Positions 2,462 to 24,750 of a stretch of 64,000 nt of DNA are shown piece after piece (the first letter of the stretch is position 1; every line of letters starts with the position of its first letter). This DNA comes from an uncultured Actinomycetota bacterium (GTDB lineage: Bacteria; Actinomycetota; Actinomycetes; Streptosporangiales; Streptosporangiaceae): contig CAWJMK010000018.1 of assembly GCA_963843955.1 (NCBI GenBank), positions 648,445 through 712,444 on the forward strand, written 5' to 3'. A program made the position numbers and the translations under genes. A model generated the notes under the pieces. That model did not search any database. It had not been told where the DNA came from and saw only the letters and a program-made list of their open reading frames with translations.

Positions 2462-2538
2462 GCCCCGATAGCTCAGGCGGATAGAGCGACTGCCTCCTAA
2501 GCAGTAGGCCGCAGGTTCGAGTCCTGCTCGGGGCGCCA
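2462..2538 (+). tRNA. tRNA-Arg (anticodon CCT), CCA encoded
   Basis: Acceptor gccccga/tcggggc, D arm gctc-aggcggata-gagc, anticodon stem actgc/gcagt with loop ctCCTaa, T arm gcagg-ttcgagt-cctgc, discriminator g plus cca. Confidence 0.95.
2494..2538 (+). repeat. attL core (45 bp, part of the functional tRNA)
   Basis: ctcctaagcagtaggccgcaggttcgagtcctgctcggggcgcca is identical to 10054-10098. Confidence 0.9.
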
Positions 2539-2539
2539 C

Positions 2540-3742
2540 TTAAAATCCCAGTTCAGGTGGATCACGGGAGCTGGTGAGCCGATCTTCGGGCCCATCAGGC
2601 TGTCCGTCTCGTGCCACATACGTGCCACAGGTTTCTCCGGTGAGGTCCCGTCGGGCTCGCTCGGATACTGCCTCGGCCAGGGTTCGCTGACGGTCGTCGC
2701 TCGAGTGCAGATAGATGAGCGCCGCCCGGCTGCTGGCGTGGCCCATACGTTCCATCAGCTCGCGGAGGTTGGCTCCGGCCTCGGCCACTAAGTGGTTGCC
2801 GGCGTGGCGGAGGTCGTGGAAGTGGACGCCGTCCAGCCCGGTGGCAGCGAGCGCCGGTGCCCAGGTAGCGCGGCGGAAGTTGCTGTGCCGGAGCAGCTGG
2901 CCGCGCGGCGAGGTGAAGACGAGCGCGTCGACGCCCGGAGTTGTCTGAGTGTCGAGGTGGTGCTTTATCTCAGCTACGACGGTGCCGGGCAGGATGACGC
3001 GGCGCTTGCCTGCTGCGGTCTTCGGCGGTGCGAAGAACGGGGCCTGGCCGCGAGCCTCAGTGAGCTGACGGCTGATACGGACGGTGGCGGTGGCGGTATC
3101 GATGTCGCGGCGGCGCAGCGCGACGAGCTCGCCCCAGCGCAGGCCGCCGAAGCAAGCGAGCAGGATCATGGCGCGGTAGCGGGGACCGGTGGCGTCGGCG
3201 AGCTTGTAGACCTGGCCTATGGTCAGCAGAGGCCGTTCGGGTGACTGCTCGGTGCCGGCGCCCTTGACCCGGCATGGGTTGCGGCGGATCAGGCTGTCCT
3301 CGATGGCGGTCGCGAGGATGGATTTGAGCAGCCGGTAGGCCTTGGCCGTGGTGACTGGGCTGACGCCCTCATCGAGCAGATCGGCACGCCAGCGGCGCAC
3401 GTCGGCCTCCGTGATGCTGCCGATGGTGGTGAAACCAGGCGCGATGTGACGGCGGAGCAGGTACCGGTAGAGCTGGATCGTCTTGGGCCGGAGGCCAGGC
3501 CGCTCGGCGATCCAGGCGTCGGCGTAATCGGTGAGGGGGACGCGGCCGGCCTCCGGATCGATCCAATCGTCCTTGAGTAGCTCGGCCTCGGTCAGCGCGA
3601 GCCAGCGAGCACCATCGGTCTTGCGAACGAAGGTGCTAGGCGCGCTCACCAGCAGGCCGTCAGGACCGCGGTAGCGAGCTTGCCAGCGACCCGAGGGGAG
3701 ACGGCGGAGGGAGCCGAAGCTGCGTGTCTTCCGGCCGGCCAT
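2540..3742 (-). CDS. int: Tyrosine recombinase / phage-type integrase
   Basis: N-terminal SLRRLPSGRWQARYRGPDG, C-terminal ...FHDLRHAGNHL...HASSRAALIYLH (R..HxxR..Y catalytic pattern). The stop lies 2 nt from the tRNA end. Confidence 0.95.
   Translation of the reverse strand: MAGRKTRSFGSLRRLPSGRWQARYRGPDGLLVSAPSTFVRKTDGARWLALTEAELLKDDWIDPEAGRVPLTDYADAWIAERPGLRPKTIQLYRYLLRRHIAPGFTTIGSITEADVRRWRADLLDEGVSPVTTAKAYRLLKSILATAIEDSLIRRNPCRVKGAGTEQSPERPLLTIGQVYKLADATGPRYRAMILLACFGGLRWGELVALRRRDIDTATATVRISRQLTEARGQAPFFAPPKTAAGKRRVILPGTVVAEIKHHLDTQTTPGVDALVFTSPRGQLLRHSNFRRATWAPALAATGLDGVHFHDLRHAGNHLVAEAGANLRELMERMGHASSRAALIYLHSSDDRQRTLAEAVSERARRDLTGETCGTYVARDGQPDGPEDRLTSSRDPPELGF
2612..2627 (+). repeat. 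16-nt arm repeat tgccacatacgtgcca (left arm, inside the int 3' end)
   Basis: Identical 16-mer at 9942-9957 in the same orientation. Candidate integrase arm-type site. Confidence 0.5.
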
Positions 3743-3743
3743 G

Positions 3744-3965
3744 TCAGCTTGCCCTCCGGCGCCGGTGCGCCCAGGCGGTTACCGGCTGGACGGTGCCGGC
3801 CGCGATGTACTCGGCTAACGCAGACTCGGGGATTCGCACGTGCCGGCCGACGCGGACGAACCGGATCTTGCGCTCGGCGATGAGGCGGCGAGCGAAGCTC
3901 GGAGACGTGCCGAGTAACTCGGCGACCTGGTCGACGGTGAGCAGCGGGTCCGGCTTGGCGGCCAT
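3744..3965 (-). CDS. xis: Excisionase-family helix-turn-helix protein
   Basis: LLTVDQVAELLGTSPSFARRLIAERKIRFVRVGRHVRIPESALAEYI. Sits immediately upstream of int (1-nt gap). Start taken at the internal ATG 3965. Confidence 0.85.
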   Translation of the reverse strand: MAAKPDPLLTVDQVAELLGTSPSFARRLIAERKIRFVRVGRHVRIPESALAEYIAAGTVQPVTAWAHRRRRAS

Positions 3966-3970
3966 GGCAG

Positions 3971-5437
3971 TTACTCCGTTCGGGCAAGTGGTGATGGGAC
4001 GAGCAGCTCGGGCTCGTCTTGAGCCGGGATGAGGATTCGCGGATCGCGCCGGTTGAGAGCGGTCGCGGCGGCGCGTTCGGCCGCCCACTGCTCGGTGATC
4101 TCGGGGACGCGCAGTCGCGTGAATGGGTCGGTGCCGGTGGTCAGGGTGGCGACGGCGGTGCCGATCCCCGCCGGTGTCTCGCGCAGCAGAGTCGGGCTGT
4201 AGCCGGGGTACTCGCGGATGGCATCTCCGAGTGCTGCGACGCTGCTCTCGGTGGTCTTGAGCGCGAACGACACGGCCAGCCCGGAGTTATCGCGCAGGCT
4301 GGTCGGGATCGAGTCGCCGGTGGTCTTCTGCGTGGCCAGGATGGTCAGGCAGAGGACGGATCGGCCTTTGCGGATCAGCTCACCCACTAGTGCGATGCAC
4401 CTGCGGGCGAGGCCTTCGAGCGTGCGGTCGCCTTTGTGCTGGGCGAGGTCGAGGTAGGTCTGGCACTCGTCGATGACTGTCACCAGCAGCGGAAGATCTG
4501 CGGTTGGCCCGTTGGCGTTCCAGGCGTTGCGCTGCCCGCACAGTTCGGTGACCGTGCGGAGGCGGCGGCGCATCTCGGCGTGCGCGTCCTCCAGGACATC
4601 GAGGGCGTCGGCGAGTTGGTCGCCGCAGTGCCGCCAGGCTCGGTCATGCCAGGGTTCCTGGTCGCCGCCGTTCTTCCCGTCGAGCAAGGCGAATTGCGCT
4701 GCCGGTGTCGCGGTCAGCTGGCACAGCCACGATGCGATCAGCGAGGTCTTGCCGTAGCCGGGCAGGCCGGACACGCAGATCCCGGTCAGGCCGCGCAGCG
4801 GCAGGTATCGGTCGGCACCGAAGTCGTCGCGGCCGACGTAGAGCACGTCCGGGTGGTGCGGGGTGTATGTGCCGGGCGGGCACAGCTCCGGGCCGAACGG
4901 CTGGGCGAGCGGATCGGTGCGCAGCGCGCGGACTATCAGGCGGCCCGGCTGCACCTGGGTGACGCCGACGCGGACGGACCGCCAGTAATCCGCGACGTGG
5001 GCGGCTTGCTTCTCTACCTCTTTGCGGCCGGTGCGCGGCGCGGTCTTCACGGTGCACTGCCAGCCGTAGTCGGTGAGCCGCCACCGGCGGGCGCGTGGGT
5101 AATGGATCTTCCCGAGCCGTTCTGCCAGTTCGATGCCGAGCAGCGACGCCAGCAGCCAGCCGGTGATCGAGAGCAGCACCAGCACCAGGACCCGTGACTC
5201 GGCCGCTGCCCTGTTCTTGGCAGCAAGCTCCGGCTGTGCGAGCCCGGTGCAACGGCACAGCCAGTGCCAGCGGTGCCGGGCCCGGATCATGCCGAGGTAG
5301 TGACGGCGGGCCGCGGGCGGCGCGGCTGCGAACCGGATCAGGTCAGCGGTCGGCCGGTACAGCAGGACAGCCGCGACGAGCGCCGGGATGTCATGCCACG
5401 GATCGGTGAGCCATAAGACAGCGGGAAGGATGAGCAC
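3971..5437 (-). CDS. FtsK/SpoIIIE-family DNA translocase (TraSA/TraB-like conjugal transfer protein)
   Basis: Walker A GLPGYGKTS, Walker B LLVTVIDECQ, N-terminal TM segments. GTG at 5437 is preceded by GGAGG with a 6-nt spacer. The 650-aa track ORF is over-extended. Confidence 0.85.
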   Translation of the reverse strand: MLILPAVLWLTDPWHDIPALVAAVLLYRPTADLIRFAAAPPAARRHYLGMIRARHRWHWLCRCTGLAQPELAAKNRAAAESRVLVLVLLSITGWLLASLLGIELAERLGKIHYPRARRWRLTDYGWQCTVKTAPRTGRKEVEKQAAHVADYWRSVRVGVTQVQPGRLIVRALRTDPLAQPFGPELCPPGTYTPHHPDVLYVGRDDFGADRYLPLRGLTGICVSGLPGYGKTSLIASWLCQLTATPAAQFALLDGKNGGDQEPWHDRAWRHCGDQLADALDVLEDAHAEMRRRLRTVTELCGQRNAWNANGPTADLPLLVTVIDECQTYLDLAQHKGDRTLEGLARRCIALVGELIRKGRSVLCLTILATQKTTGDSIPTSLRDNSGLAVSFALKTTESSVAALGDAIREYPGYSPTLLRETPAGIGTAVATLTTGTDPFTRLRVPEITEQWAAERAAATALNRRDPRILIPAQDEPELLVPSPLARTE

Positions 5438-5508
5438 GGCTGGCCTCCACGGGTGGAGAGCCCGGCCAGGCCAGGATGCCGCGACCTGGCCGGGCGGCTG
5501 AACAAGAT

Positions 5509-5907
5509 CTAGGAGGCCTGGTCGGCCTTGGCCTGGCGGGGCTGGTGGGCCTGGTGCACGTTGGCGGCCTGGTACCAGGGGCGGCCGCCGCGTATCCCGC
5601 GGCCGTTCTCGCGAGCTTCGGGCACAGAGAAGCCGACGCGCATCTTGTCGAACACGATCGGGGAGCCCGGCGTGATCGACGTGCACGGATCGGTGGCGGG
5701 CCCGGTGACGGTGACGGCGATGACGTCGCTGACCGGCTTCATGCCGGGCTCGGCGTGGTAGGTGACGGCGGCCTGGACGTCCCACTTGCGTTCGCCGCGC
5801 GCGCTGATGTCCTGCTCGGTGCTGCCGAACTTGAGCTTCGGGCCGCTGGCCATGAGTAAGACGGCTTGAAAGGTCGCGGTCGTGTCGACGGTGAGTGTGC
5901 CTGGCAT
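5509..5907 (-). CDS. Hypothetical protein, first gene of the orf-tra-xis-int string
   Basis: 132-aa ORF co-oriented with and just upstream of tra, with sensible codon usage. No motif recognised. Confidence 0.55.
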   Translation of the reverse strand: MPGTLTVDTTATFQAVLLMASGPKLKFGSTEQDISARGERKWDVQAAVTYHAEPGMKPVSDVIAVTVTGPATDPCTSITPGSPIVFDKMRVGFSVPEARENGRGIRGGRPWYQAANVHQAHQPRQAKADQAS

Positions 5908-5980
5908 GGAAGCCGCCCTTCATCGGATTGGATCGACCTGAGTACTCAGCTCAATCACTGATATAGGCAGATCGTAAATC

Positions 5981-6016
5981 TGACTATCTATGGAGTCAAC
6001 AGCTTCGGCAAGCTGT
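5981..6016. promoter_or_regulatory. Two adjacent palindromes in the divergent promoter region between orf132 and the GntR-HD gene
   Basis: TGACT-N8-AGTCA (5981-5998) and ACAGCTT-cggc-AAGCTGT (5999-6016), in an AT-richer intergenic stretch. Confidence 0.4.
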
Positions 6017-6039
6017 CTAGGCAAGTAGCATCAGCAGGT

Positions 6040-6915
6040 ATGCAGGCCATCGACCCGCAAGATCCCCGCCGGCCGAACGTGCAGATCGCCGCGTCAATCC
6101 GTGCCGCGATCCTGAGCGGGGAGCTCGAGCCCGGAGCCCAACTCCCCTCGGGCGAGGAGCTGGCGAAGTTCTTCGGCGTCACCCGGGTCACGGTCGGGAA
6201 CGCGATCCGCACCCTGCGGGAAGAGGGCTTCGTCCGCAGTAAAACCGGCAGCGGCGTGTACGTCCGCGATCAGGCCAGCCTCCCGGTGCCGGGCGGGTCC
6301 GATCACCCGCTGGCCGGAGTCGCGTCGTTCCTGTTCGAGATGGGCCACCTCAAGCGCGTCCCGCGGTCCGGCTGGCTGCTACTCGGCGTGCCGCAGCCGG
6401 AGACCATCGCCGAGCACAGCTTCCGCGTCGGCATGGTTGGCATGGCGCTGGCAGCGATCGAAAGTGCGGACGTTGGACGCACCGCTGCGCTGTGTTTGCT
6501 TCATGACGCACACGAGACCCGGATCGGCGACGTTCCCTCCGTCGGCCGCGCCTATGTCACCACCGCGGCGCCGGAAGCAGTCTCAAGCCATCAGACGGCG
6601 GGCATGCCAGACGCCGCCGCCAAAGCCTTCCAGGAACTGACCGCGGAGTTCGAGGCCGGCCAGACGATCGAGGCCCAGGTTGCTCGAGATGCCGACAAGC
6701 TCGAGACCTTGCTCCAGGCCGTCGAGTACCAGGCGCAAGGCCATGACACCAGCGCATGGCAGGAAACCTCGATCGCCGCACTGCGCACGGATGCGGCGAA
6801 GCAGCTCGCCCAGGCCATCACCGCCACCGACCCACAATGGTGGTCGGCCTTCGCCGCCTCCTACCGCGAACTGCGCGCCAGCGCCCAGGGGCGTGCCCGC
6901 AACCTTCACAGCTGA
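6040..6915 (+). CDS. GntR-family wHTH fused to a YfbR/HDDC2-type HD-domain phosphohydrolase
   Basis: N-terminus: IRAAILSGELEPGAQLPSGEELAKFFGVTRVTVGNAIRTLREEGFV (GntR HTH). C-terminus: LKRVPRSGW...ETIAEHSFRVGMV...LLHDAHETRIGDVP...DADKLE (HD 5'-nucleotidase-like). Confidence 0.85.
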   Translation: MQAIDPQDPRRPNVQIAASIRAAILSGELEPGAQLPSGEELAKFFGVTRVTVGNAIRTLREEGFVRSKTGSGVYVRDQASLPVPGGSDHPLAGVASFLFEMGHLKRVPRSGWLLLGVPQPETIAEHSFRVGMVGMALAAIESADVGRTAALCLLHDAHETRIGDVPSVGRAYVTTAAPEAVSSHQTAGMPDAAAKAFQELTAEFEAGQTIEAQVARDADKLETLLQAVEYQAQGHDTSAWQETSIAALRTDAAKQLAQAITATDPQWWSAFAASYRELRASAQGRARNLHS

Positions 6916-7397
6916 GGGGTGACTCGAAGCCTCCGCCGCCGTACCAAGATCCATATCAACAGCGTGAGTACTGCCTCGGCGGACAGGGCAATCATGTTGC
7001 AGGTGAAGAAGAATTTGGCTTGCTCTGGCGTCTGTAGTGCGCCCGGATAGTCTGCTGAGGCGTTGTGGTCCACGATCAGGCTCTGAATTGCGACGACCAT
7101 CGACGCGATACATCCGGCGACAATCGCTATGGCGAGCCATTTAGCGGACTGCCGGACGAGACCGACGGCTGCCTCGATGAATACGAGTGCTAGCAAGCAC
7201 CAGAGGCTGAGAGGGATGCTGCCGGCCTGGGAGCACGTGCCGTCCCATCCGCATCCGCCGTCCCGCACGTCGTAGTACCCTGCCCACTCCATGCCAATTT
7301 CGAGCACCGCAAATAGCTGTAGGACCAGCGCGACTCCGGCCGCGCACGTTATGCCTGCGACAGCCACCCACGGTTTGCGTTGCCCCTGTTCGCCCAC
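6906..7397 (-). CDS. Small integral membrane protein (about 4 TM) with a Cys-containing loop
   Basis: Hydrophobic segments VAVAGITCAAGVALVLQLFAV, LSLWCLLALVFIEAAVGLV, LAIAIVAGCIASMVVAI and IALSAEAVLTLLIWILV. GC is lower than in neighbours. Confidence 0.55.
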   Translation of the reverse strand: MGEQGQRKPWVAVAGITCAAGVALVLQLFAVLEIGMEWAGYYDVRDGGCGWDGTCSQAGSIPLSLWCLLALVFIEAAVGLVRQSAKWLAIAIVAGCIASMVVAIQSLIVDHNASADYPGALQTPEQAKFFFTCNMIALSAEAVLTLLIWILVRRRRLRVTPQL

Positions 7398-7706
7398 CTT
7401 GTCATGTTACGTCGGCAGGGAGGAAGGTCCAGGAGATTTGCGCGGCTTTACGGTCGTCCCATCGCAAGAACTGTCGGACTTTTATTCACTACGGTCGATT
7501 CCGAGGCCTTTTGATTTCGACGGTCTAGCAACTGTCGCGGGGCAACCCGAGGTCGCCGCGCTCCCCGACGAAGAGCGTGCCGAGACTCTAGAGGTGGCAG
7601 GCCGCAACGACGACGAGGATCGAGGGGTCTAGTCGGCAGCTTCGCGGCCTGATTTGCGTCTGGCGTTTGCTTGGGCCGGACGATTTCTTTGATCTGGCCC
7701 GTTGAT

Positions 7707-7724
7707 GCGGGTCCCTCCGGGTCC
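7707..7724. repeat. Two direct sCGGGTCC repeats, the second containing TCCGGGTC (complement of GACCCGGA)
   Basis: gcgggtccctccgggtcc read in the intergenic region downstream of rep. Resembles the 8-bp TraB recognition repeats of Streptomyces plasmids. Confidence 0.3.
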
Positions 7725-7771
7725 GGTATAGCGATCAGGCGGCGAATTTATTGTTGCCGTAGCATCTGGCG

Positions 7772-9082
7772 CTACTCGTGAGGCAGGACAGAGCCGACCG
7801 ATGCCGTGGGGAGCGGTCGGCGATCAGTAACGCATAGCAGATGGACGTCATAGACTAGGCCGTCGATGGCGTCCCGGCCGCCGTGCTCCGCACTGACGAG
7901 CAGAGCGAGCTCAAGGCCTGCAGTGCGCATTCGTGACCAGGTCGAGAGCTGGATGACAGCAAGCAACTCACCGCCAACGTCCAGAGACGCCATTTCTTCA
8001 TCGGTGTGCTGATGCGCGGCCGCGGGGGCAAGCACGATCGACCGCAGACCGCGGGACCAGCGGACGGCCGCGAGGCTGCGGGCGGCGCGGGCGTATTCGT
8101 GCCACAGGTTCCGGTCGCGGGAGTCGCCGGTCTGGTAGTAGTCGGCCAGGATCTGGAACGGTGTGCGGTTGCCTGTTCGGCTGGTCTTGAGGTCGCCGCG
8201 GGCCATTTCTTCGGCAGGCGTCCACTCGCCGGTCTTGGCCACGTAGGCACCGGCAGCGGTGGCGGAGACGTTCGGGTCGATGCGGACGGCGTGCAGCTGG
8301 TCCGGCGCGCGAAGGCCGTGTTCGAGGCAGGCGGCGGTGAGCCGCACGTGGATGTGGCCGTGCAGCTGTGCGATGGCGGCAGCGTCGAGGTCCTGGTCGT
8401 GGATCAGCAGGACGTGGTAGTGAGGGTGCCAGCCGTTGACGTCACCCCAGGTGAACTCCAGCGCGATGATGTGCCCGGCGATCCCGAGCTTGCGCCTGAG
8501 GCGCTGCCAGGCGGCGCCTTGGGTGACGTGCTTCCACGCATCCCGCTGCACATCGACAAGCTTCGACAGGCCGTCCCCGAGGTCGTGCGGGATCGTGATC
8601 GTCACCAGGCTCGCTGCGTGCCCCTGCGCCTCCCAGGTGGTGAGGGCGTCGCGGAGTTCGGCGGCGCGGCGATGATGGATCTTGGCCGAGCAGACGGGGC
8701 ACAGCCACACGTTGCCGCAGGTCTCCAGGCCGCTGTAGTACGCGGAGCCGTCCTTGATCCGGATCTCGACCTGCGAGCCGACGGGCACGGCGCCGCAGTT
8801 GCGCTGCCGCTGCGGAGTGTCGGGGTCGGCGGCCGCGAGGGCCCGCAGGTTCATCCGCGCTCCGCGGCGCCATCCGGCGGGATCGTCGCAGGCCAGCAGA
8901 GGGTGGTTCGAAACTTTGCGTCTATACCGAGACAGTGCGTTCGCGGGAGCGCGAGCAGGAGGAGATGTGGGGAAGGATGATCGGCGGCCTTCTGCGCTTC
9001 GCGCCTGGCCGCCTCGGGGCGCGCACAGTTCGCGCGCCCTGGTGGTGCGGGAGTCGTGGATGGGCTGTGTCGTGGTTGCCAT
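7772..9082 (-). CDS. Rolling-circle replication initiator (RepSA-like, HUH)
   Basis: ETCGNVWLCPVCSAKI and GWHPHYHVLL (HUH-like) motifs. An alternative start MNLRAL lies at 8854. Confidence 0.85.
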   Translation of the reverse strand: MATTTQPIHDSRTTRARELCAPRGGQARSAEGRRSSFPTSPPARAPANALSRYRRKVSNHPLLACDDPAGWRRGARMNLRALAAADPDTPQRQRNCGAVPVGSQVEIRIKDGSAYYSGLETCGNVWLCPVCSAKIHHRRAAELRDALTTWEAQGHAASLVTITIPHDLGDGLSKLVDVQRDAWKHVTQGAAWQRLRRKLGIAGHIIALEFTWGDVNGWHPHYHVLLIHDQDLDAAAIAQLHGHIHVRLTAACLEHGLRAPDQLHAVRIDPNVSATAAGAYVAKTGEWTPAEEMARGDLKTSRTGNRTPFQILADYYQTGDSRDRNLWHEYARAARSLAAVRWSRGLRSIVLAPAAAHQHTDEEMASLDVGGELLAVIQLSTWSRMRTAGLELALLVSAEHGGRDAIDGLVYDVHLLCVTDRRPLPTASVGSVLPHE

Positions 9083-9272
9083 GAGCCGGCCTCCGCAGAC
9101 GAGCTGGAATCCCAGGCCCGCCGGTGATGCGGCGGGCCTGCCGTGCTTTCTTGGGCCGGGATGGCAACCGGCAGCGCGAAGTGCGCGTGCAGCTAGCCGG
9201 GCTGGCTAGCAGAGCCGAAGAGAAGGAAGCCGCGGCCCGGTCGGCACCGGGCCGTTGCCGGATGAGGGGTCG

Positions 9273-9710
9273 TCAGTTTTCTGGCTCGCCAGGCGTCGCA
9301 TGCGGCTGGCTCAGGAGGTGGGCAAGGTCCTGCTCGCTCAAGTCGTGCAGGTGCAGATGGAGGTGCTGTTCGGTCGCGGGTACCCGGTGGCGGCCGGATC
9401 CGCGGTCATCCTGGCGGCTGATCGCCGCCCGACCATGGCCGGAGGTGAGCGCATGCTGAGTCGCTGGGGTCGCCCGGATGGTGCGGCTTGCCGGCGGGCG
9501 GGATTTCAACCGCAGATGCATGACGGCTGCGGTGGTCAGGCCAGCGATGGTGAGTCCGGCGATGATGCCAGCGGCGATCGCCAGAGTAGTCAGCGTGTGC
9601 GCGACCGCGGTCTTGCCGGCGGCGATGATCACGACGCCGGCGACGATCACGGCAAGCAGAAGGGCGCCGCTGCTGCGGGGCGGCGGGCAGTGGGTCGAGC
9701 ATCGCGGCAT
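9273..9710 (-). CDS. Small membrane protein upstream of rep
   Basis: Two hydrophobic helices (ALLLAVIVAGVVIIAAG, LAIAAGIIAGLTIAGL), co-oriented with rep. Start uncertain (9710 or 9743). Confidence 0.4.
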   Translation of the reverse strand: MPRCSTHCPPPRSSGALLLAVIVAGVVIIAAGKTAVAHTLTTLAIAAGIIAGLTIAGLTTAAVMHLRLKSRPPASRTIRATPATQHALTSGHGRAAISRQDDRGSGRHRVPATEQHLHLHLHDLSEQDLAHLLSQPHATPGEPEN

Positions 9711-9941
9711 GGCGAATCCTCTCCAGGGTGGTGGTGTCAGCAAGGCCTCGAGCCGGGCTGCGCGGCTGAGGGTATGGCCGTGCCCTCGCCGTCAAGGATC
9801 TTCGACCGCTACGCGGCGCCTTCGGCGTCCTTGACCGCGAGACTCTGGCACGGCATCGGCAGAAGGGGCGGCAGGCAAGGAGCCTGCCTCAAAGGACGCC
9901 GCGCAGCCCTCTGTAGCGAGCGGTTGAAGCCGGTCCTGGCA

Positions 9942-9957
9942 TGCCACATACGTGCCA
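9942..9957 (+). repeat. 16-nt arm repeat tgccacatacgtgcca (right arm)
   Basis: Identical to 2612-2627. Lies about 100 nt left of the attR core. Confidence 0.5.
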
Positions 9958-10053
9958 TACACTCGGCCGAAGTCGGCTCGCTAGGAGCTCATCGAAAGCA
10001 GGGTGGCACCGCCGGAGCAGGCACTTTACTGAGCCTGACGGTCTACGGGCTTG

Positions 10054-10098
10054 CTCCTAAGCAGTAGGCCGCAGGTTCGAGTCCTGCTCGGGGCGCCA
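10054..10098 (+). repeat. attR core (45-bp tRNA-Arg 3' fragment)
   Basis: 45/45 identity to 2494-2538. The flanks diverge on both sides. Confidence 0.9.
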
Positions 10099-10107
10099 TA
10101 CCGGCAC

Positions 10108-10168
10108 GTGGAGAATATTTTTCGCCATTCCGTTCAGGGCTATGTAAACTGCCTGCGAGCAATCGCTC
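10108..10168 (+). repeat. AT-rich left-arm repeat (copy 1)
   Basis: Alignable with 12958-13017, including the identical 22-mer aactgcctgcgagcaatcgctc (10147-10168 and 12996-13017). Confidence 0.75.
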
Positions 10169-15769: not shown

Positions 15770-15799
15770 CATCTCGCGGTCGAGTCCACTACGGCTACC

Positions 15800-17065: not shown

Positions 17066-17187
17066 GGGCCAAACTGAGAGCCAACGTCAGCAGGGCCTGG
17101 GCGGTGTCAGGCGTCGTCGGGCGATTGTCGTCGCAGGTCAGCGCCACGTAAGGCCGTGGTGGGCGGCGTCTGGCCTGGTTCGGGTTT
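17066..17187 (+). repeat. Conserved right arm, copy lacking the tRNA core
   Basis: Aligns with 12788-12908 up to ...ctggcctggttcgggttt, then diverges. Confidence 0.85.
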
Positions 17188-17270
17188 ACCGGCGGCCACC
17201 GGTTTGAGCCCGGCCACGACCTCGGCCTGGAGTTGCTTCAGGTTCTCTTTCGGGACGCCGGTGCCTGATG

Positions 17271-18500
17271 TCATCTCCGCAGCGACAGGTCGAAGCGCTC
17301 GAACCTGCGAATGTAGGCGAATGGCATCCACCGCGGTTCCGCTACCGCTTCCAACGAGGCAGTGAGCTGGATAAGCGAGTACATGAGCTCCTCGAGTTCG
17401 ATGTTCGTTAGCGCTGCCCCGATGCAATAGTGGGCTCCGGCGCCGAATGTCGGTGGCGCAGGATTCGGCCGGCGAACGTCGAATGTCATCGGCAGGTCAT
17501 AACGCCGGGGGTCGCGCGACGCCGCGGGCAGGCAGAAACCGACCGGCGTGCCCGCCGCGATGCGCACGCCGGCGACGACCGTATCCTCGCTCGCGGTCCG
17601 CGACGTGGAGAAGGTAATGGCCTCGTAGCGCAGGACCTCATCCACGGCATTAGGGATCAGCGCGGGAGCTGACCGGATGGCCTGCATAGCCGCAGGATTA
17701 TCGACCAGGAGCCACAGCATGGCGCCGATCGCGCCACGGGTCGTGTCGTGGCCCGCAAAGAGCAGGTTCTCGATCAGGTCAACCAGTTCGCGGGTAGACA
17801 GCTTGTCACCGGCCTCCTCAACCCGGATCAGGTCGCTGAGCAGGTCGTCGCCGCTGGACTTCCGACGCTCGGCGACGATGCTGATCACGTACTCGTCCAA
17901 GTTTGCGAGCGCCCGCTCCACCCGGGCATTGACGTCCGGATCTCCGACCGCGCCGAATGCGAGGCCGATATCCGTCGTCCACTCGGCGAAGATCTCGCGA
18001 TCGGCTTCGGGTATATGCAGGAGCTGCGCCATGACCATGGACGGCAAGTGGTGTGCGATGGTCTCCATCACGTCGACGCGGCCGCCTTCCACCGCGCGCG
18101 AGACGAGCGAGTCCGCGATGACGCGGATCTTGACCCGTTCCTGCTCCATCCGCCGAGGTGTGAAAGCACGGCTGACGAGCCGCCGGATCCTGGTGTGGAC
18201 CGGCGCGTTGTTGCTGAACATCATCCGGGACCACCACTCCCAGACCGGACCCGAGCTGAGGCCCATCATCGCTAGCAGGTCCGCGGCCAGGAAGCCCGGA
18301 TCCTTCAGGCACCGCTCAACGTCGCTGTGGCCGAGAAGCCAGATGCCACCGTCGTTGGCACGGGCAACGGTGGCGGCCGCTAGGGCATCCTGAATCGGCC
18401 CGTGGATGTCCTGCCAGAACGCCGGCTCCTCGATCGGCAGTACCGGCAGCTCCTTCACTGATGTCGTCTCGTGCGCTGGCGTCAACCCCGGCTTGGCCAC
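17271..18500 (-). CDS. Cytochrome P450
   Basis: FAGHDTTRGAI (I-helix), EVLRYE (ExxR), FGAGAHYCIGAAL (Cys-heme loop). Confidence 0.9.
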   Translation of the reverse strand: MAKPGLTPAHETTSVKELPVLPIEEPAFWQDIHGPIQDALAAATVARANDGGIWLLGHSDVERCLKDPGFLAADLLAMMGLSSGPVWEWWSRMMFSNNAPVHTRIRRLVSRAFTPRRMEQERVKIRVIADSLVSRAVEGGRVDVMETIAHHLPSMVMAQLLHIPEADREIFAEWTTDIGLAFGAVGDPDVNARVERALANLDEYVISIVAERRKSSGDDLLSDLIRVEEAGDKLSTRELVDLIENLLFAGHDTTRGAIGAMLWLLVDNPAAMQAIRSAPALIPNAVDEVLRYEAITFSTSRTASEDTVVAGVRIAAGTPVGFCLPAASRDPRRYDLPMTFDVRRPNPAPPTFGAGAHYCIGAALTNIELEELMYSLIQLTASLEAVAEPRWMPFAYIRRFERFDLSLRR

Positions 18501-18509
18501 GTCATCTCC

Positions 18510-18705
18510 TTGTCACACTGCAGCTCGGCCGCGGCACGGAAAGCCGCTGTATCGGTGATTTGCTGCCGGTGCCAGATCTGTCACGCACTCGGAAGATGGT
18601 GCGGACGGGAGCATCCACGGCCCGGCCAGTTGCCTTGTCAGCGGAGTACGGGCCGAGCACGATCACCGTTTCGCCCGCGTCAATGTACTCCTCGACCCTG
18701 GTGCG
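18510..18705 (-). pseudogene. SnoaL/NTF2-like protein, 3' fragment
   Basis: VEEYIDAGETVIVLGPYSADKATGRAVDAPVRTIFRVRD, then a frame change. No N-terminal part is present. Confidence 0.3.
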
Positions 18706-18965
18706 TTAATAGTCCCATTCATGATAGATAGGGGTGGCCGCCTTTGCAATGGGCCTCTTCCGGCCCGCGCTACGGCCAGCGCAATGCCGCGTAGTTAAGG
18801 ATCAGCGAGCTGGGTCAAGCAAGATCGCGTTGTTCGGCGTGTCGCCGGCATGCACGACGTGCTCGGAAGGCAGACCTGCCGACGGGATAGTTATAACGGT
18901 AGGTCTCGCACAAGGCACTGCGGCCCGCCGAGCCCGCGCCAGGGGGCGTCGGGCTTCAGGATGGC

Positions 18966-19886
18966 TCAGATCGCCGTTTCGAGGTCCGTCACGCGAAATC
19001 GATCAGCCACGCTGGCGAGACTGTCAAGGGAGCGAGTGATGGTGCCCAGGTCGGCCATCGGGATTCCTACGACGAGTCGTTGTGCTCCCATACTCCGGTA
19101 TAGTTCCGCCTTCTCGAGGAGGACGTCCATCGCTGCGTTGTCCTCGAAGTACCAGGGGTTCCTTGGTGTCCTGGATACTCCGAGGCTTACCGTCAGGAGT
19201 GGCTCAGGTCGTCCCGATTCGGCTGCCATTGCTCGCAACTTCCGCAGCCTTGTGGGGAGCTCCGGGTTGTCGAGCGGGTACCAGCCGTCGGCTAGGTCCA
19301 CGAGCTGGCGGAGTTGCCATTCGAAGCCAGTCGCGCCCAGCAGGATCGGAGGGTGCGGCTTTTGAACCGGCTTGGGCCAGACCCAAGACTCGCTGAACGA
19401 CCCGAATTTGCCTTCGTGAGCAACTGTTTCTTCGGTCCACAGTCGCTTTAGCACAGCCAGCTTCTCTGCGAAGACCTCTCGGCGCGAGTCCCACTGCACA
19501 CCGTTGTTCTCAGCTTCGGGCTTGTTCCAGCCGTAACCGACTCCGAACTCGAGACGGCCTCCTGAGACCATGTCAAGGGTGGCGGCGGCCTTGGCAAGAT
19601 GGAACGAGTTGTGTTCAGCTACCAGGATGATCCCGGTGCCGAACCGGATGGTGCGTGTGACGGCGGCGGCGGCCGCAAACGACACGAACAGGTCCGGGAA
19701 ACGTTGGTAGAACTCTCGACCGAGCTCGCCGGTTTCTGCGAACACAGTGTTTACCGGGATGTGGCTATGCTCGCCTTGGAAAATCGATTCCAACCCCCTT
19801 TCCTCGGCGAGGACAGAGACCTCGGTGATCGACGGGGTGGTGTCGTTAAGAGCAGTGACAATCCCTATGTGCATGTTCGGGAACAT
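18966..19886 (-). CDS. Luciferase-like (LLM class, probably F420-dependent) oxidoreductase
   Basis: ESIFQGEHSHIP...MVSGGRLEFGVGYGWN...PPILLGATG. Confidence 0.85.
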   Translation of the reverse strand: MFPNMHIGIVTALNDTTPSITEVSVLAEERGLESIFQGEHSHIPVNTVFAETGELGREFYQRFPDLFVSFAAAAAVTRTIRFGTGIILVAEHNSFHLAKAAATLDMVSGGRLEFGVGYGWNKPEAENNGVQWDSRREVFAEKLAVLKRLWTEETVAHEGKFGSFSESWVWPKPVQKPHPPILLGATGFEWQLRQLVDLADGWYPLDNPELPTRLRKLRAMAAESGRPEPLLTVSLGVSRTPRNPWYFEDNAAMDVLLEKAELYRSMGAQRLVVGIPMADLGTITRSLDSLASVADRFRVTDLETAI

Positions 19887-20376
19887 ACGTTATTTGGACG
19901 CAGTCCGCCATGCTCCGGCCCTGGACGTCGGTGTTCGCGCACGGCCACCTGCAGATCAGCCACCTGTTTCCGACGGCGACGAGGGCACCGGCCGCATCGA
20001 CTGGCCAGAGGCGAGCCGGGGCGACGCGCTGTGCAGACCTCGCTAGCCTGACGAACTTGCATGAGGAGCACCGCCCCGAGCTCCTCGCCCGTAACGGCAC
20101 CGATGTTGACATCGACGTGATCCGCGGCTGGTCGCTGCGAAGCCTGCGGAAGTCCCGCTAGCTGATCGAGCACGGCTTCGGCCCGTCCTCCCCCGGCGCC
20201 GAGTTCGCTGTGGTGAGAGCTCAGATGCGGCGGGGCTGACCAGGCGAGACGTTTGTGTGCTTGACAGCAACTAACCATTGCGCCATCATATATCGACCGT
20301 ATGGTTCAATACAGTCTACTTCGAAACAAGCAACCGCTCGCAGGTCACCACCTGATCGGGCGCCCGGGAAGGTGAC

Positions 20377-21669
20377 ATGAAGTCCCACATCACGAGGTCG
20401 TTAAGCGGTCTCTGCCTGTCCGGTACTTTGGCACCATCAGCTCGACGTCGCGCAGCCGCTGTTGTCGCCTGTGTCACGCTCTTTGCTCTCGGAGCCTCGG
20501 CGTGCGCGTCCAGTAGTAACGGCGGTTCCAGTACGACGGCTGCCGGCGCCAAATCGGCGACGATCAAGATCGCCTATTTGGGCGATCAGTCCGGGGCTCT
20601 GGCGACAACGTTCGGGCCCGAGCTGAGCGGCGTCCATGCGTTCGTGGACTACTACAATGCACACGGGGGACTCTCCGGACACAGGCTCGTATTGTCTGTC
20701 TACGACGACGAGAGCAGCTCAAGCGCGGTGCTTTCGAATGCCCGGCTGGCTGTCCAGCAAGGCGCGGACGTCATCGTTACCCAGGATCCGTATTTCGACA
20801 GCGCTGCTCCGTATCTGCAGTCGACCGGTATCCCCGTTTTTGGTGCTGGCATCACCGCGGGATTTTACGGCAAAGATAAGACGACATTCTTTTCTCCCGT
20901 GGGCGATTGGATCGACTACACCAGCGATGCCGGCATGAAGTTCTTTGTGCAAAAAGGTCTCAAGAAGATTGCCGTGGTGTCGGACGCGAATCCTGGCAAC
21001 ATGATCGCAGCCCATGAGGTAGCGAAGGCCGTCCCCTTGGTCGGCGGAACTCTGGTCTACTCCAATTACTCGGTCGATGACACCGACACCGCAAGCCTGT
21101 TGGCTTTGGCGCAACGGTTGAAGGCCGTCGGCGCTCAAGCGATGCTGGCGAACCTGTACGGCACGGCTGCGCCCGAATTGCAGTCTGACCTGAACCAGGC
21201 CGGCGCGCACGCTGTTGTGCTGAGCGACAGCACCGGTTTCGATCCGGCAGTCACTAAGCAGTTCGGCACGACGATCAATGGCCTCCTCGGAGAACAGAAC
21301 GGAGCCACACCTTTGAATTCCGCCGTCCCGCCGATAAAGACGTACCTCGCAGCGATGAAGCAGTACGAGCCATCGGGCGACCCGTACAACGCCTCGAACC
21401 TTTTCGGATGGTACGCCATGACACTGTTCGGTGGGGCCGTGCAGCGCCTCGGAACCAAGGTTCCCACCTCCGCGAACATTGTCGCCGCTGGGAACAGCAT
21501 AAAAAACTTCACCGCCGACGGCATGCTCCAACCGATCTCGTTTCCCGCGATGCATGACACGCTGGCACCTTGCCTGTCCTTCGCGCAAGTCACCAACGGT
21601 CAATTCAAAATAGTGTCGGGCTCAGGGACCAACTTCCTCCTCTGCGGCACACCGGTGGGGAACAATTAG
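20377..21669 (+). CDS. ABC-transporter substrate-binding lipoprotein (branched-chain amino-acid/LivJ-like fold)
   Basis: Signal peptide with lipobox ...LGASAC, then IKIAYLGDQSGALATTFG. No permease or ATPase gene is adjacent. GC is lower than in the flanks. Confidence 0.8.
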   Translation: MKSHITRSLSGLCLSGTLAPSARRRAAAVVACVTLFALGASACASSSNGGSSTTAAGAKSATIKIAYLGDQSGALATTFGPELSGVHAFVDYYNAHGGLSGHRLVLSVYDDESSSSAVLSNARLAVQQGADVIVTQDPYFDSAAPYLQSTGIPVFGAGITAGFYGKDKTTFFSPVGDWIDYTSDAGMKFFVQKGLKKIAVVSDANPGNMIAAHEVAKAVPLVGGTLVYSNYSVDDTDTASLLALAQRLKAVGAQAMLANLYGTAAPELQSDLNQAGAHAVVLSDSTGFDPAVTKQFGTTINGLLGEQNGATPLNSAVPPIKTYLAAMKQYEPSGDPYNASNLFGWYAMTLFGGAVQRLGTKVPTSANIVAAGNSIKNFTADGMLQPISFPAMHDTLAPCLSFAQVTNGQFKIVSGSGTNFLLCGTPVGNN

Positions 21670-22128
21670 GTAGACCTCATTCGGGATGTTGACCTGTCTC
21701 AACAGACTGCCGTCGGCCGGTACTGCATGGACCGACAAGACGATGCCGGCGAATCGCAGCCCGAAGCGGTTGAGGTGGTCAGCGTGGCGACATCAGTCGC
21801 TACCGCTGAGAGCGAGGAGTCTGACGAGCCCAGCGCCAGGGCACACGGATGATCCAGACGGAGATGTCACGCAGACCACTAAGTTCGCCGCGCGCCCCGC
21901 CGCGAGATCGTCATGCAGGGCGTCATCGACGATGCACCGCTTGAGCGGCAGGCACAGGCCAGCTCGTCGAAACCTTCGTCTTCGCCGAACGCCGACATCG
22001 ATTCATACGGAACGCCGGATTCGGACCATTCATAACGCCGCTTGCCGGCCTTACAGTTCGCCGCCTGAAGACGGGCGACTGCGGCGGGGACGGGCGTGAG
22101 GATGCTCCTGCCGTAACAAGACGTGTGA

Positions 22129-22278
22129 GAGCCAAACTGGGAGCCAAGGTCAGCCGGAGCCTAGCGTCGTCAGGCTGCATCAGGCGATCGTCGTGCCAGG
22201 TCAGCGCCACGTAGGGCCGTGGTGAGCGCTGTCTGACCTGGTTCGGGTTTGCGTCCTAAGCAGTAGGCCGCAGGTTCG
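22129..22278 (+). repeat. Conserved right arm (22129-22249) plus truncated tRNA-Arg fragment (22250-22278, 28/29)
   Basis: Aligns with the other arms. The tRNA identity stops after ...gcaggttcg. Confidence 0.85.
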
Positions 22279-22502
22279 TTTCGGGACAGGCACTGACCAG
22301 GCGCAGCCTAAGCGCGCCCGTGACCTCGGCCGGGCACTGGCCACCGCCCTCGAACTGAAAGGCGACGGTGTCGCGGTCCGGCCGCTGGATTTGTCTGAGA
22401 CGGCTATTTGCGGCGGCGTTGCTGGAGTCGTCACACGCCAGGTCACACGGCGGGCGGGCATGGTCGGTTTAAGCGAAAGTCCGTGGACCGAAGGAGTAAG
22501 CC

Positions 22503-22739
22503 ATGCCGCTTGTCAATGTTCGCCTGATCGAGGGAGTCTTCTCCCCCGACCAGAAGCGCGAGATAATCCACAAGCTGACCGAGACGATGGTGGAGATCGA
22601 GGGCGAAAGCCTGCGTCCAGTTACGTGGGTCATCGTCGAGGAGGTCAAGAGTGGGGACTGGGGCATCGGCGGGAACGGTCTCACGACCGCCGATGTACAT
22701 GCCCTGCAGGGTCAGGCCCCGGCTGCGGTTGCGGGCTGA
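22503..22739 (+). CDS. 4-oxalocrotonate tautomerase-family protein
   Basis: MPLVNVRLIEGVFSPDQKREIIHKLTETMVEIEG (catalytic Pro1). RBS GAAGGAG. Confidence 0.85.
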   Translation: MPLVNVRLIEGVFSPDQKREIIHKLTETMVEIEGESLRPVTWVIVEEVKSGDWGIGGNGLTTADVHALQGQAPAAVAG

Positions 22740-22751
22740 GGTTCACCAGCG

Positions 22752-24554
22752 ATGACGCGGCGGGTACGGCTGCTCGGGTGTCCTCGCATCGAGGACGATG
22801 GGCAGTCTTGCCCGGCGCCGCGCGGTGTCAAATCCTGGGCGGTGCTGGCCCGGGTCGCGCTGGCTGAACGTCCGGTCGGGCGGCACGAGCTAGCGAGAGA
22901 ACTGTTCGGCGAGGCAGACGATCCGCTGGGCGCGTTGCGATGGTGCCTGGCGGACCTGCGGCGCAGCCTGGGCCTGCGGACGTTGCTCCGCGGTGATCCC
23001 CTCGGCCTGGCGCGGGATGAGCTGTGGCTGGATGTGCAGGCGCTTGATGACAGCTCCCTGCCCGCCCGGGACATCGCCGGCGGCCTGCTGGAGGGTGTCG
23101 AGCTGCGGGATTGCCCAGGGTTCGATACATGGTTGCTGCTGGCCCGCATGCATTACGCCGCGCGCTGCAGGCAAGAGCTACGCCGGCTAGCGCTGAGTCT
23201 GCTGGCAGCTGGTGACGTTGAGGATGCGACAGTCGCGGCCGGGCGTGCAGCCGCGCTCGATCCGCTGGACGACGGCGCGCAGGAGCTCTTCCTGCGGACC
23301 CTCGTTGCAGCTGGGCGTGGCGGGCTGGCCTCGGCGCATCTTGCCTCGTGCGAGCTGACGTTCGCACGCGAAGGGCTTGTGCCGTCGCCCGCGCTGCGGT
23401 CGGCGGCTCGTGACCCTGGGCCGCCCAGTTCGCGGCTGCGTGCCGGGGTGGTCGCTGCCTCCCTGTTGCGGGCAGGAACAGCTGCGTTGGATGCGGGCGC
23501 GGCAGACGCCGGGGTCGAGACACTGCGCCGCGCGGCTAAGGAGGCCGGGCGAGCCGCCGACCCGGCTACGCAGGCTGATGTGCTTCGCGCCCTGGGCAGC
23601 GCCTTGGTCCACGCGGTGCGAGGATCGGACGGTGAGGGAGCAGTCGTGCTGCACCGCGCCCTGCTGGCCGCCCGCACCGCAGGCCAGACTGCGGCGGTGG
23701 CAGAAATCCTGCGGGAGCTGGCCTTCGTGGACGTACAGGCCGGCCGGCACGCCTCCGCCGACCGGGCGCTACAGGAAGCCGCGCAGCAAGCCGCCGCTGA
23801 TCCTGCTCTGATGGCCGGGATCCTCGCCATGCAGGGGATGAATCAGGCCGACCGTGGACGGCACATCGAAGCGGCGGCATTGCTCACGCAGTCAGCCGAC
23901 ACTGCCCGCCAGGCCGGACGTGGCCGCCAAGAGGCCTGGTCGCAGGGAGTGCTGGCCCGCTCGTTGTCGCTTGCGGGACAACTGCAGCCAGCTCAGGCAG
24001 CAGCCGAGCGGAGCATGACATTGGCACGGGGCGAACGGTGGAATGCCTTCCTGCCATGGCCCCAGGTGCTGCGCGCCCAGTGCCTCGCCGACGCCGGCTT
24101 CTTGGATCAAGCCAGCGAGGACGCTGAGCAAGCGTTCGCTCTCGCCTGCGAACTGGGTGACCCCTGCTGGGAGGGCATGGCCGGCCGGGTGCTTGGCCTG
24201 TTGGCGCTGCATGCGGGCGACCTGGACGCAGCACAGGCCTGGCTCGCCGATGCCCGCCGTCGCTGCGACCGGGTCCCGGACCGGTACGTCTGGGTCTCTG
24301 GCTACATCGGACTGGCCCAGCTGGAGCTGGCCGCCCGCCAGGACATTGACCTGGTCGGACCTTCAGCGGCACGGCTCTACCAGCACGCGGTGCGCAGCGA
24401 TCTGCCGGAATTCCTCGCCTGGGCGCTGGTCTATCAGGCCGAGTCCGGCGACCGCGCCAAGGTACCGCTGGCCCGCACCGCAGCCGATGGCGTGACCAAC
24501 CCCAAGCTCCAGGCGCGAGTTCAGGCCCTATCCGGCGACAGCCGTATCGCCTGA
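22752..24554 (+). CDS. SARP/AfsR-like regulator (OmpR-type wHTH plus BTAD plus TPR-like repeats)
   Basis: VRLLGCPRIEDDG...KSWAVLARVAL...LWLDVQAL...FDTWLLLARMHY...AAALDPLDDGAQELFLRTLVAAG, then Ala/Leu-rich helical repeats. Confidence 0.8.
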   Translation: MTRRVRLLGCPRIEDDGQSCPAPRGVKSWAVLARVALAERPVGRHELARELFGEADDPLGALRWCLADLRRSLGLRTLLRGDPLGLARDELWLDVQALDDSSLPARDIAGGLLEGVELRDCPGFDTWLLLARMHYAARCRQELRRLALSLLAAGDVEDATVAAGRAAALDPLDDGAQELFLRTLVAAGRGGLASAHLASCELTFAREGLVPSPALRSAARDPGPPSSRLRAGVVAASLLRAGTAALDAGAADAGVETLRRAAKEAGRAADPATQADVLRALGSALVHAVRGSDGEGAVVLHRALLAARTAGQTAAVAEILRELAFVDVQAGRHASADRALQEAAQQAAADPALMAGILAMQGMNQADRGRHIEAAALLTQSADTARQAGRGRQEAWSQGVLARSLSLAGQLQPAQAAAERSMTLARGERWNAFLPWPQVLRAQCLADAGFLDQASEDAEQAFALACELGDPCWEGMAGRVLGLLALHAGDLDAAQAWLADARRRCDRVPDRYVWVSGYIGLAQLELAARQDIDLVGPSAARLYQHAVRSDLPEFLAWALVYQAESGDRAKVPLARTAADGVTNPKLQARVQALSGDSRIA

Positions 24555-24608
24555 GGCATGCCACTGCAGGCGCGGGTCCCGGTGACCGCGATCGGGCTGG
24601 AACCCGCG

Positions 24609-24750
24609 GAGCCAACGTCAGTAGGAGCCTGGCGTCGTCGGGCGTCGTCGGGCGAGTGTCATCGCCGGTCGGCGCCACGTAGGGCGGCGGTGAGCGTCGT
24701 CTGGCCAGGTTCGGGTTTGCCTCCTAAGCAGTAGGCCGCAGGTTCGAGTC
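24609..24750 (+). repeat. Conserved right arm (24609-24717) plus truncated tRNA-Arg fragment (24718-24750, 33/33)
   Basis: Aligns with the other arms. tRNA identity stops after ...ggttcgagtc. Confidence 0.85.

Follow-up and report, generated by a model that had tools for sequence, protein, structure and literature searches.

The 64-kb window analyzed here (64,000 nucleotides of contig CAWJMK010000018.1, positions 648,445 to 712,444, from the assembly GCA_963843955.1 of an uncultured soil Actinomycetota bacterium, family Streptosporangiaceae) carries, immediately downstream of a tRNA-Arg(CCT) gene, an element of the actinomycete integrative and conjugative element (AICE) type followed by four further DNA units, numbered 2 to 5. 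The locus is probably an accretion array of conserved integrase-less modules, resembling cis-mobilizable elements (CIMEs) and joined through attP-type junctions, into which the AICE was inserted later; the array would then have been eroded by deletion in this genome and remodeled by an insertion sequence (IS) in sister strains.

A tandem array anchored at the tRNA had been proposed in a preliminary description of the window, and its periodicity was indeed found to break exactly at the tRNA core, where the genuine tRNA is preceded by its 5' half instead of a right arm, as expected from site-specific integration at a tRNA. Five matches to a 24-nt core probe and four to the 22-nt arm tail were detected in the window, against zero expected in each case (shuffled sequences for the core probe). 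The repeat search recovered the copies of the tRNA 3' end previously placed at 10054, 12909, 22250 and 24718, as well as the arm of ~120 nt described before the last three of them and its additional copy at 17066. This right arm measures ~125 nt and is 73-88% identical among copies; over 152 nt, 17064-17215, 22127-22278 and 24595-24746 are 73, 88, and 84% identical to 12786-12937, respectively. The left arm reported after the cores at 10054 and 12909 was also confirmed (24 of 25 positions match between 10147-10171 and 12996-13020), and nhmmer searches with arm and left-arm models retrieved no extra copies in the rest of the window. Some details required correction. The arm copy at 24595-24717 (24609-24717 in the preliminary description) is present, but it starts with what remains of an IS end (~24585-24608) and not with the first GAGCCAA repeat, and the core said to be missing behind the arm at 17066 is lost in the window, at a place that coincides with a 7.6-kb three-unit indel and where sister strains retain a full core.

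The anatomy of the junctions was defined from alignments of 18-37 of them. Each junction is a block of ~400 nt whose conservation begins and ends abruptly at a tandem GAGCCAA-N5-GAGCCAA, which lies in right arms at a fixed -124 relative to the core; left arms are of two subtypes, with the tandem at +173 or +226. The right arm (P) consists of the GAGCCAA tandem, two copies of GGCGTCGTCA, the segment GGCGATTGTCG..GCAGGTCAG and the arm tail GTCTGGCCTGGTTCGGGTTT, after which the core begins; in the left arm (P'), the tRNA core is followed by an AT-rich block, AACTGCCTGCGAGCAATCGCTC, a variable stretch and the second GAGCCAA tandem. The right-arm segment, also written GGCGATTG..CAGG, has its inverted counterpart in the left-arm AACTGCCTGCGAGCAATCGCTC. 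Both form an imperfect inverted repeat (12852-12872, GGCGATTGTCG..GCAGGTCAG, and 12996-13017, AACTGCCTGCGAGCAATCGCTC) that flanks the 46-48-nt tRNA core, with each half ~80 nt from the core centre, nearly invariant across the aligned junctions and showing no covariation. RNAalifold found no RNA covariation in the junction alignment (covariation term +0.9, 1 of 50 pairs compensatory) and Rfam returned nothing on the junction except a sub-threshold tRNA score, suggesting that the conserved blocks are best read as protein-binding DNA. Integrase-bearing elements on the same core display the same two-armed design, with GTGCCA(C/G)A instead of GAGCCAA, a difference of 1-2 nt. By analogy with the arm repeats of these AICE-type elements, the GAGCCAA repeats may represent putative arm-type integrase sites and the whole junction a complete attP.

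The distribution of the junction was investigated by scanning the 20-nt arm-tail pattern against one genome per species. Among the 35 DNA stretches obtained, 7 were 20-nt chance matches in unrelated phyla, and 28 came from 18 metagenome-assembled genomes (MAGs) labelled Streptosporangiaceae, Actinomycetes or "uncultured Actinomycetota", the named ones being Streptosporangiaceae. All 28 stretches contain the arm (83-97% identical to 12786-12908) followed by the last 46-48 nt of the tRNA and, in most of them, by the left arm, and their cores are mostly full-length. Counted by locus, the association of arm and tRNA 3' end holds at ~27 sites outside the window. Several contigs show 2-3 junctions inside 8-17 kb, and the arrays hold 4-7 or more integrase-less units. 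On contigs of 3.8 and 4.8 Mb, all matches fall within ~32 kb, and the cluster on the 3.8-Mb contig starts at a genuine tRNA. Neither of the two patterns that the preliminary description regarded as incompatible with accretion was observed: the arm is not dispersed genome-wide, since its matches cluster in one region of multi-Mb contigs, and unit number and content are not fixed in relatives, varying between strains and species. When the junction was compared by BLAST with plasmid and phage collections, only its tRNA part matched, and of two arm patterns used against viral contigs one gave zero matches and the other two chance matches in contigs of 39% GC.

No integrase lies downstream of position 10098 (phmmer with the AICE integrase, Pfam on the main open reading frames, ORFs), in agreement with the preliminary description, and no integrase, excisionase or transfer genes of their own were found in units 2-5 with Pfam, NCBIfam and phmmer. 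These units are bounded by att-type sites that share their core with the co-resident integrative element. Likewise, none of ~30 left arms from genomes and metagenomes is followed by an integrase (phmmer, Pfam on adjoining ORFs). This is also the case at the metagenome loci retrieved through a left-arm 20-mer, a search in which 7 of the 15 matches were unrelated or degenerate. Thus, the absence of an integrase is a trait of the module family, and the units belong to a conserved integrase-less family and are not independently decayed islands. Their cargo across arrays is diverse (136 clusters from 160 ORFs), and four modules recur upstream of right arms (23 of 38), namely a ribbon-helix-helix (RHH) operon, VapBC, AbiE and an AAA_14-DUF4143 ATPase, with the RHH module standing beside right arms in ~10 loci.

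Arms have been reassorted at the core. Across 18 junctions, the similarity of right arms shows no correlation with that of left arms (r=-0.01, Mantel p=0.53), and right-arm identity is 88% beside the same or homologous cargo versus 82% beside different cargo. Unit 5 itself reappears in another locus (L043) with 92% identity and a complete left arm, behind a different unit. There is no homogenisation of arms within genomes, as identity is 82.5% within and 82.3% between genomes and 24 of 31 arms have their best match in another genome. Moreover, arms are 94-97% identical where the adjoining orthologous cargo is 88-89% identical, and the similarity of units between species exceeds that of the housekeeping flank by 5-13 points. 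Taken together, these data argue for a constrained site that moves along with its module and swaps partners at the core.

The element adjacent to the tRNA shows the features of an AICE, with a tRNA-adjacent tyrosine integrase, 45-nt end repeats (2494-2538 and 10054-10098), Xis and Rep; its ORF at 3971-5923 had no match to an FtsK/SpoIIIE-type translocase among Pfam or NCBIfam profiles. The integrase (Int) shares 39.5% identity with that of pMR2 across 89% of its sequence. Both arms of the window AICE, and those of its integrase-bearing relatives in loci L021, L030, L034, and L038, carry tandem GTGCCA(C/G)A repeats, and the P' repeat of these elements is located inside the int 3' coding region or just past the stop codon. 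In six loci (L010, L023, L038, L063, L069, and L076) the tRNA-Arg directly abuts the left arm with no AICE between them, and the left arm displaced by the window AICE is 90-98% identical to the sequence that follows the tRNA in L010 and L023. AICE-type elements lie exactly between core and left arm in L021, L034 and the window, those in L021 and L034 being smaller and int-bearing. The window AICE is therefore a separate family and a late arrival at the array. Given this separate, later origin and its different arm motif, excision of a 10.5-kb composite (2494-12954) by the AICE integrase is a conjecture.

Sister strains were available as metagenome contigs 99.7-99.9% identical to the window. 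The same AICE occurs in them and is degraded in one. They contain an extra 7.6 kb between window positions 17190 and 17172 (2277-9898 of L048, flipped), made up of three arm-bounded units: one with a WYL regulator and two ORFs, one with an AraC regulator and one ORF, and one of the RHH type. Behind the arm of the VapBC unit, these strains have a full core and then a left arm. The order of units 2 and 3 is the same in all four sister contigs and in L023. In addition, a 1.3-kb IS30-family IS was found inserted in the 19-bp motif GAGCCAAACTGG^GAGCCAA, at the same position, in at least four different arms of the window's population. This IS encodes a 402-aa HTH_38+rve transposase and has 26-bp inverted repeats (IRs), GCGG(G/A)TTCCAGCGA..GTCGCAACAC. 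Positions 22140-22143 of the window, in the right arm of unit 4, constitute an empty IS target that is occupied in sister strains. In two other species (L037 and L042), the ends of an IS lie directly at this motif position, in one case in a left arm (L037), and these loci hold related copies of the IS (83-86% identical). Insertion at an identical motif position implies a strict target specificity of the IS for the putative arm-type site.

These observations can be accommodated in the following scheme. Modules of 2-7 kb, each bearing both halves of a ~400-bp complex attP-type site, would be stacked by serial recombination at the 46-48-nt tRNA core, a process that would leave an attP structure at every internal junction. 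An AICE with its own integrase and GTGCCA arm sites would later have entered the genuine tRNA, pushing the array rightwards. The modules would depend on a tyrosine integrase acting in trans; it probably comes from a relative of the AICE integrase family, the arm-site motif of which is only 1-2 nt off. After assembly, the three distal cores of the window would have been truncated or lost, together with the 7.6-kb three-unit block that is missing in comparison with sister strains, and the GAGCCAA-targeting IS30-family IS would also have reshaped arrays in the population.

Several results weigh against this scheme. A cognate integrase for the GAGCCAA arms was not found in these searches. The best 120 Int homologues are not of the GAGCCAA type: 55 of them match the C-terminal peptide associated with GTGCCAC sites, and the other 65 are unmatched and include the GVARMWHD class and short forms that end before the site region. 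One short Int type, P0036, is located at tRNA-Arg(TCT), with GTGGCAC sites immediately past its stop codon. The other genomes were viewed as 8-kb tiles, and integrases may be present elsewhere in those arrays. Furthermore, the end points of the 7.6-kb indel fall outside the core, in the arm tail and a degenerate copy of it, and the event looks like a short-homology deletion rather than integrase action. No circular junction or precise single-unit excision was found among near-identical strains, whose remaining differences are explained by the IS. The higher identity of units than of flanks could reflect constraint instead of transfer, and the perfectly conserved 46-nt core could reassort through homologous recombination.

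A more far-reaching proposal, which we consider only tentatively, is that a working clade-wide gene-capture platform operates on tRNA-Arg(CCT). According to this proposal, recombinase-less multi-gene modules, each with a complete ~400-bp attP-type site, would be inserted, excised and reshuffled at the tRNA core by a tyrosine integrase dedicated to them, whose gene would lie elsewhere or on an AICE, toxin-antitoxin (TA) and defence modules would stabilise the array, and the IS30-family IS would parasitise the arm-binding sites. In function, the platform would correspond to integron cassettes or to integrative mobile elements exploiting Xer recombination (IMEX), but its chemistry would be of the lambda attP/attB type.

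Conversely, the array might be static: after one or a few ancient integrations, it would have been inherited mostly vertically and altered exclusively by homologous recombination, IS and deletion, the junction being kept for insulation or for the binding of host or transfer (clt-like) proteins, and no site-specific recombination would take place today. This explanation, which we regard as rather unlikely, is consistent with the strain differences, which consist of the arm-tail indel and IS events and include no core-to-core excision, with the constant order of units 2 and 3 in the four sister contigs and L023, with the failure to find the cognate integrase, and with an identical 46-nt core that is long enough for homologous exchange. 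Nevertheless, arms that are ~82% identical are poor substrates for homologous recombination, and they show no concerted evolution. Unit order and content differ widely among species, with the same units appearing in different contexts and being more similar between species than the flanks, and the fixed-distance tandem repeats on both sides mirror those of integrase-bearing elements on the same core.

The preliminary description had favoured four islands that each lost their integrase independently, so that the downstream units would be relics of autonomous integrase-bearing islands, decayed locally once pushed away from the tRNA. Truncation or loss of the distal cores in the window, the int-xis fragment fused to an arm by deletion in L030 and the documented decay and remnants of AICEs at a Streptomyces tRNA-Arg (PMC9513070) agree with such a history. 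So does an alignment in which the GTGCCA-encoded CGTYVAR segment of the Int C-terminus faces the GAGCCAA repeats of a left arm, a single weak protein-level alignment (E 0.002 to 0.08) that is not significant and gives a hint that the left arm descended from an int 3' end. However, the same junction at 83-97% identity in 18 species and, within it, the same ~250-nt left arm with the same end motif in ~26 junctions of many species would not be expected from independent decay. No integrase or recognisable remnant was found beside any left arm examined, junction cores elsewhere are mostly full-length, and arms are more conserved than the adjoining coding DNA, all of which makes this history improbable. 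Finally, the reading of the arm as a dispersed repeat, of the repetitive extragenic palindrome (REP) or miniature inverted-repeat transposable element (MITE) type, or as a structured non-coding RNA gene lying near tRNA fragments by chance, which could draw on the tRNA-like ARAGORN calls over arm tail and core in several loci, is effectively refuted by the single cluster (~32 kb) of matches on multi-Mb contigs and the lack of covariation, besides the sub-threshold Rfam score, the constant association of the arm with a tRNA fragment and its absence from plasmid, phage and viral collections.

tRNA genes are classic hotspots of genomic islands, and arrays at these sites are usually read as piles of dead elements. 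The accretion of AICEs, considered undescribed in the preliminary description, has already been published, including at tRNA-Arg. Reported cases comprise a Streptomyces tRNA-Arg hotspot with a conserved remnant (PMC9513070, Fig. 2), Sav3708/Sav3728 of S. avermitilis, and Fean5518/5534 and Fean6303 of Frankia (PMC3218068), where composite excision was demonstrated experimentally (PMC3218068). Streptomyces pathogenicity islands have also been treated (Zhang and Loria, 2017, as cited in PMC9513070). The published AICE arrays and the one described here share the host class, a tRNA(-Arg) target, directly repeated tRNA 3' ends and functional elements mixed with defective ones. However, the former consist of 2-3 elements, mostly with int, tra or rep signatures or obvious remnants, whereas long series of units without mobility genes and with conserved arms are found here. 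The module set of the window AICE (int, xis, rep, and a putative FtsK-like tra) is that of pMR2 from Micromonospora rosaria and related AICEs; it differs from pMR2 in its tRNA target and in a putative translocase that Pfam and NCBIfam profiles miss.

The accretion of ICEs and CIMEs in streptococci, exemplified by ICESt1/ICESt3 of Streptococcus thermophilus (Pavlovic 2004; Bellanger 2011/2014, as cited in PMC3218068 and PMC9513070), resembles, as portrayed by the citing papers, our array in that integrase-less att-bounded elements stand in tandem with an integrase-bearing conjugative element and composite excision is possible in principle. With respect to those accounts, the arrays described here hold 4-7 or more integrase-less units instead of one, have a tRNA target and a two-armed attP-like junction conserved across many species, and use an arm motif (GAGCCAA) that differs from the GTGCCA(C/G)A of the resident AICE. 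Displaced 3' fragments of tDNA also mark successive integrations in the tandem islands catalogued by Islander and, reportedly, in the ssrA islands of Dehalococcoides (PMC3146451). Islander accepts exclusively units with their own integrase, and in its set of 3919 islands just 4 arrays comprise three or more (PMC4383910). Since surveys of this type demand an integrase per unit, arrays of integrase-less units would be missed by them.

Chromosomal integron cassette arrays, as well as IMEX at dif, are tandem series of recombinase-less modules that carry their own recombination sites, stand at one anchor and frequently include TA modules. In contrast to integrons, there is here no IntI/attI and there are no single-stranded attC hairpins, but ~400-bp duplex attP-like sites with a tRNA fragment, and the modules, unlike those of integrons and IMEX, are multi-gene and have their own regulators. 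An integron was rejected as an explanation of the locus because the upstream flank contains housekeeping genes only and the junctions are 400-bp duplex-type sites. What sets the present case apart is the combination of long arrays lacking mobility genes, a two-armed site present across the MAGs of 18 species, an arm motif unlike that of the AICE, and an IS specialised on this motif. The layout is closer to that of a cassette array than to a collection of dead islands.

The occurrence of a complete constrained site in at least 18 species, together with reassortment at the core, suggests a standing pool of non-autonomous modules that ride the integrases of other elements and carry defence, TA, regulatory, and metabolic genes. 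If this were true, the CIME concept, so far a streptococcal curiosity, would apply to one of the major routes of gene flux among soil actinomycetes, and a defined attP/tRNA attB/integrase system for testing mobilisation in trans, as well as an IS with 19-bp target specificity, would become available. The features of the locus are collected in Table 1.

Table 1. Features of the tRNA-Arg(CCT) array; positions are those of the window unless a locus number (L) is given.
Feature	Position	Strand	Basis
Genuine tRNA-Arg(CCT)	2462..2538	+	ARAGORN; Rfam tRNA 69.8 bits
Attachment core (attL side), last 45-48 nt of tRNA-Arg(CCT)	2491/2494-2538	+	Repeat family
AICE-type element inserted in tRNA-Arg	2539..10053	.	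Pfam; absent between tRNA and left arm in L010, L023
int (Phage_integrase, E 2.4e-18)	2540-3742	-	Pfam
AICE P' arm-type tandem repeat TGCCACATACGTGCCA, inside int 3' coding region	2612..2627	+	Motif recurs in both arms of L021, L034 relatives
Xis, HTH_17 (E 1.7e-15)	3744-4088	-	Pfam
Putative FtsK-like ATPase in ORF	3971-5923	-	Walker A GLPGYGKT, VIDE, ATQK motif by eye
GntR+HD regulator	6040-6915	+	Pfam
Rep_1 (E 8.9e-10)	7772-9082	-	Pfam
AICE P arm-type tandem repeat TGCCACATACGTGCCA	9942..9957	+	Motif comparison
AICE attR core, 45 nt identical to tRNA 3' end	10054..10098	+	Repeat search
Unit 2 (CarH/LitR-like regulator and RHH operon)	10099..12908	.	Pfam, NCBIfam, gene calls
Unit 2 left arm, subtype A	10099..10245	+	Ends with GAGCCAAACTGAGAGCCAA at 10227-10245
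Unit 2 CarH/LitR-like regulator, MerR-type HTH_17 and B12-binding domains	~10853-11653	+	Pfam, NCBIfam
Unit 2 RHH protein, 100 aa, last of three-gene small-ORF operon	11980-12282	-	Gene calls
Unit 2 right arm	12786..12908	+	GAGCCAA tandem repeat at 12788-12806
Full core, 46/46	12909..12954	+	Repeat search
Unit 3	12955..17187	.	Pfam, repeats, nhmmer
Unit 3 left arm	12955 to ~13030		nhmmer
Unit 3 MFS (major facilitator superfamily)	13460-15046	-	Pfam
Unit 3 HxlR	15116-15769	+	Pfam
Unit 3 VapB	within ORF 15991-16518	+	Pfam
Unit 3 VapC	16515-16928	+	Pfam
Unit 3 right arm	17064-17187		Repeats
Degenerate T-arm-like core remnant	17188..17215	+	Window comparison
Unit 4	17216..22249	.	Pfam, repeats; right arm 22127-22249
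Unit 4 P450	17271-18500	-	Pfam
Unit 4 luciferase-like monooxygenase (LLM)	18966-19886	-	Pfam
Unit 4 solute-binding protein	20377-21669	+	Pfam
Truncated core, 28/29, diverging beyond	22250..22278	+	Repeat search
Unit 5	22279..24717	.	Pfam; right arm 24609-24717
Unit 5 tautomerase	22503-22739	+	Pfam
Unit 5 TPR (tetratricopeptide repeat) regulator, 600 aa	22752-24554	+	Pfam
Unit 5 IS30-family IR remnant	~24585-24608		Sequence comparison with IS
Last core, truncated, 33/33, diverging beyond	24718..24750	+	Repeat search
IS30-family IS copies	L001 13467-14770; L002 18666-19969; L045, L048 (several)		Sequence comparison

Regarding the cargo of the units, the HTH_17 domain of unit 2 belongs to the CarH-like regulator and should not be confused with an excisionase. 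The gene of unit 5 previously taken for a Streptomyces antibiotic regulatory protein (SARP) has TPR and weak NsdA-like matches only, and the SARP DNA-binding domain was not found in it. In one sister strain (L001 18132-18900), an additional ~770 nt separate the LLM gene of unit 4 from its P450 gene, and part of this segment matches the RHH region of unit 2 (window 11905-12095) at 90% identity. The cargo of arrays elsewhere includes putative defence genes (DUF2397, DUF3323/DUF2399, and DUF2252) as well as AbiE (L021 3-1553, L038 3311-5620, and L027 4207-6063), and the arrays may act as defence islands.

As for the integrases, the presumed P' repeat at 2612-2627 encodes the peptide CGTYVAR in the C-terminus of the AICE Int. 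The C-terminal peptide and the DNA motif vary in step among Int homologues, and in the shorter ones the sites come directly after the stop codon. A 371-aa homologue, 73% identical to the window Int, stands alone beside tRNA-Arg(TCT) among housekeeping genes (L077 6001-7292), with GTGGCAC-N5-GTGGCA right after its stop codon and part of a diverged second core-like match ~2 kb off. This locus may represent a minimal or stranded integration module.

ARAGORN called an 80-nt "tRNA-Arg(CCT)" at 12875-12954, which corresponds to arm tail plus core, its 5' half being arm sequence. A functional tRNA at this position was discarded (Rfam 23.7 bits, threshold 29). Equivalent pseudo-tRNA calls were obtained in L010, L015, L023, L031, L032, and L037, and this combination of arm tail and core could be annotated by mistake as an additional tRNA gene. 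Upstream of the tRNA-Arg, the flank encodes housekeeping genes only; the ORF at 1792-2373 is not on record and is probably not a real gene, the CBS gene being located on the opposite strand.

To the right of 24750, junction remnants were searched for, also with nhmmer, and none was found. The last core is followed by a low-GC stretch (55%) at 25500-27000. Segments 27138-28082, 33160-33545, 37046-37360, and 41894-42227 of the window are homologous to junction-adjacent cargo of arrays from other species, suggesting that the island probably extends past 24750.

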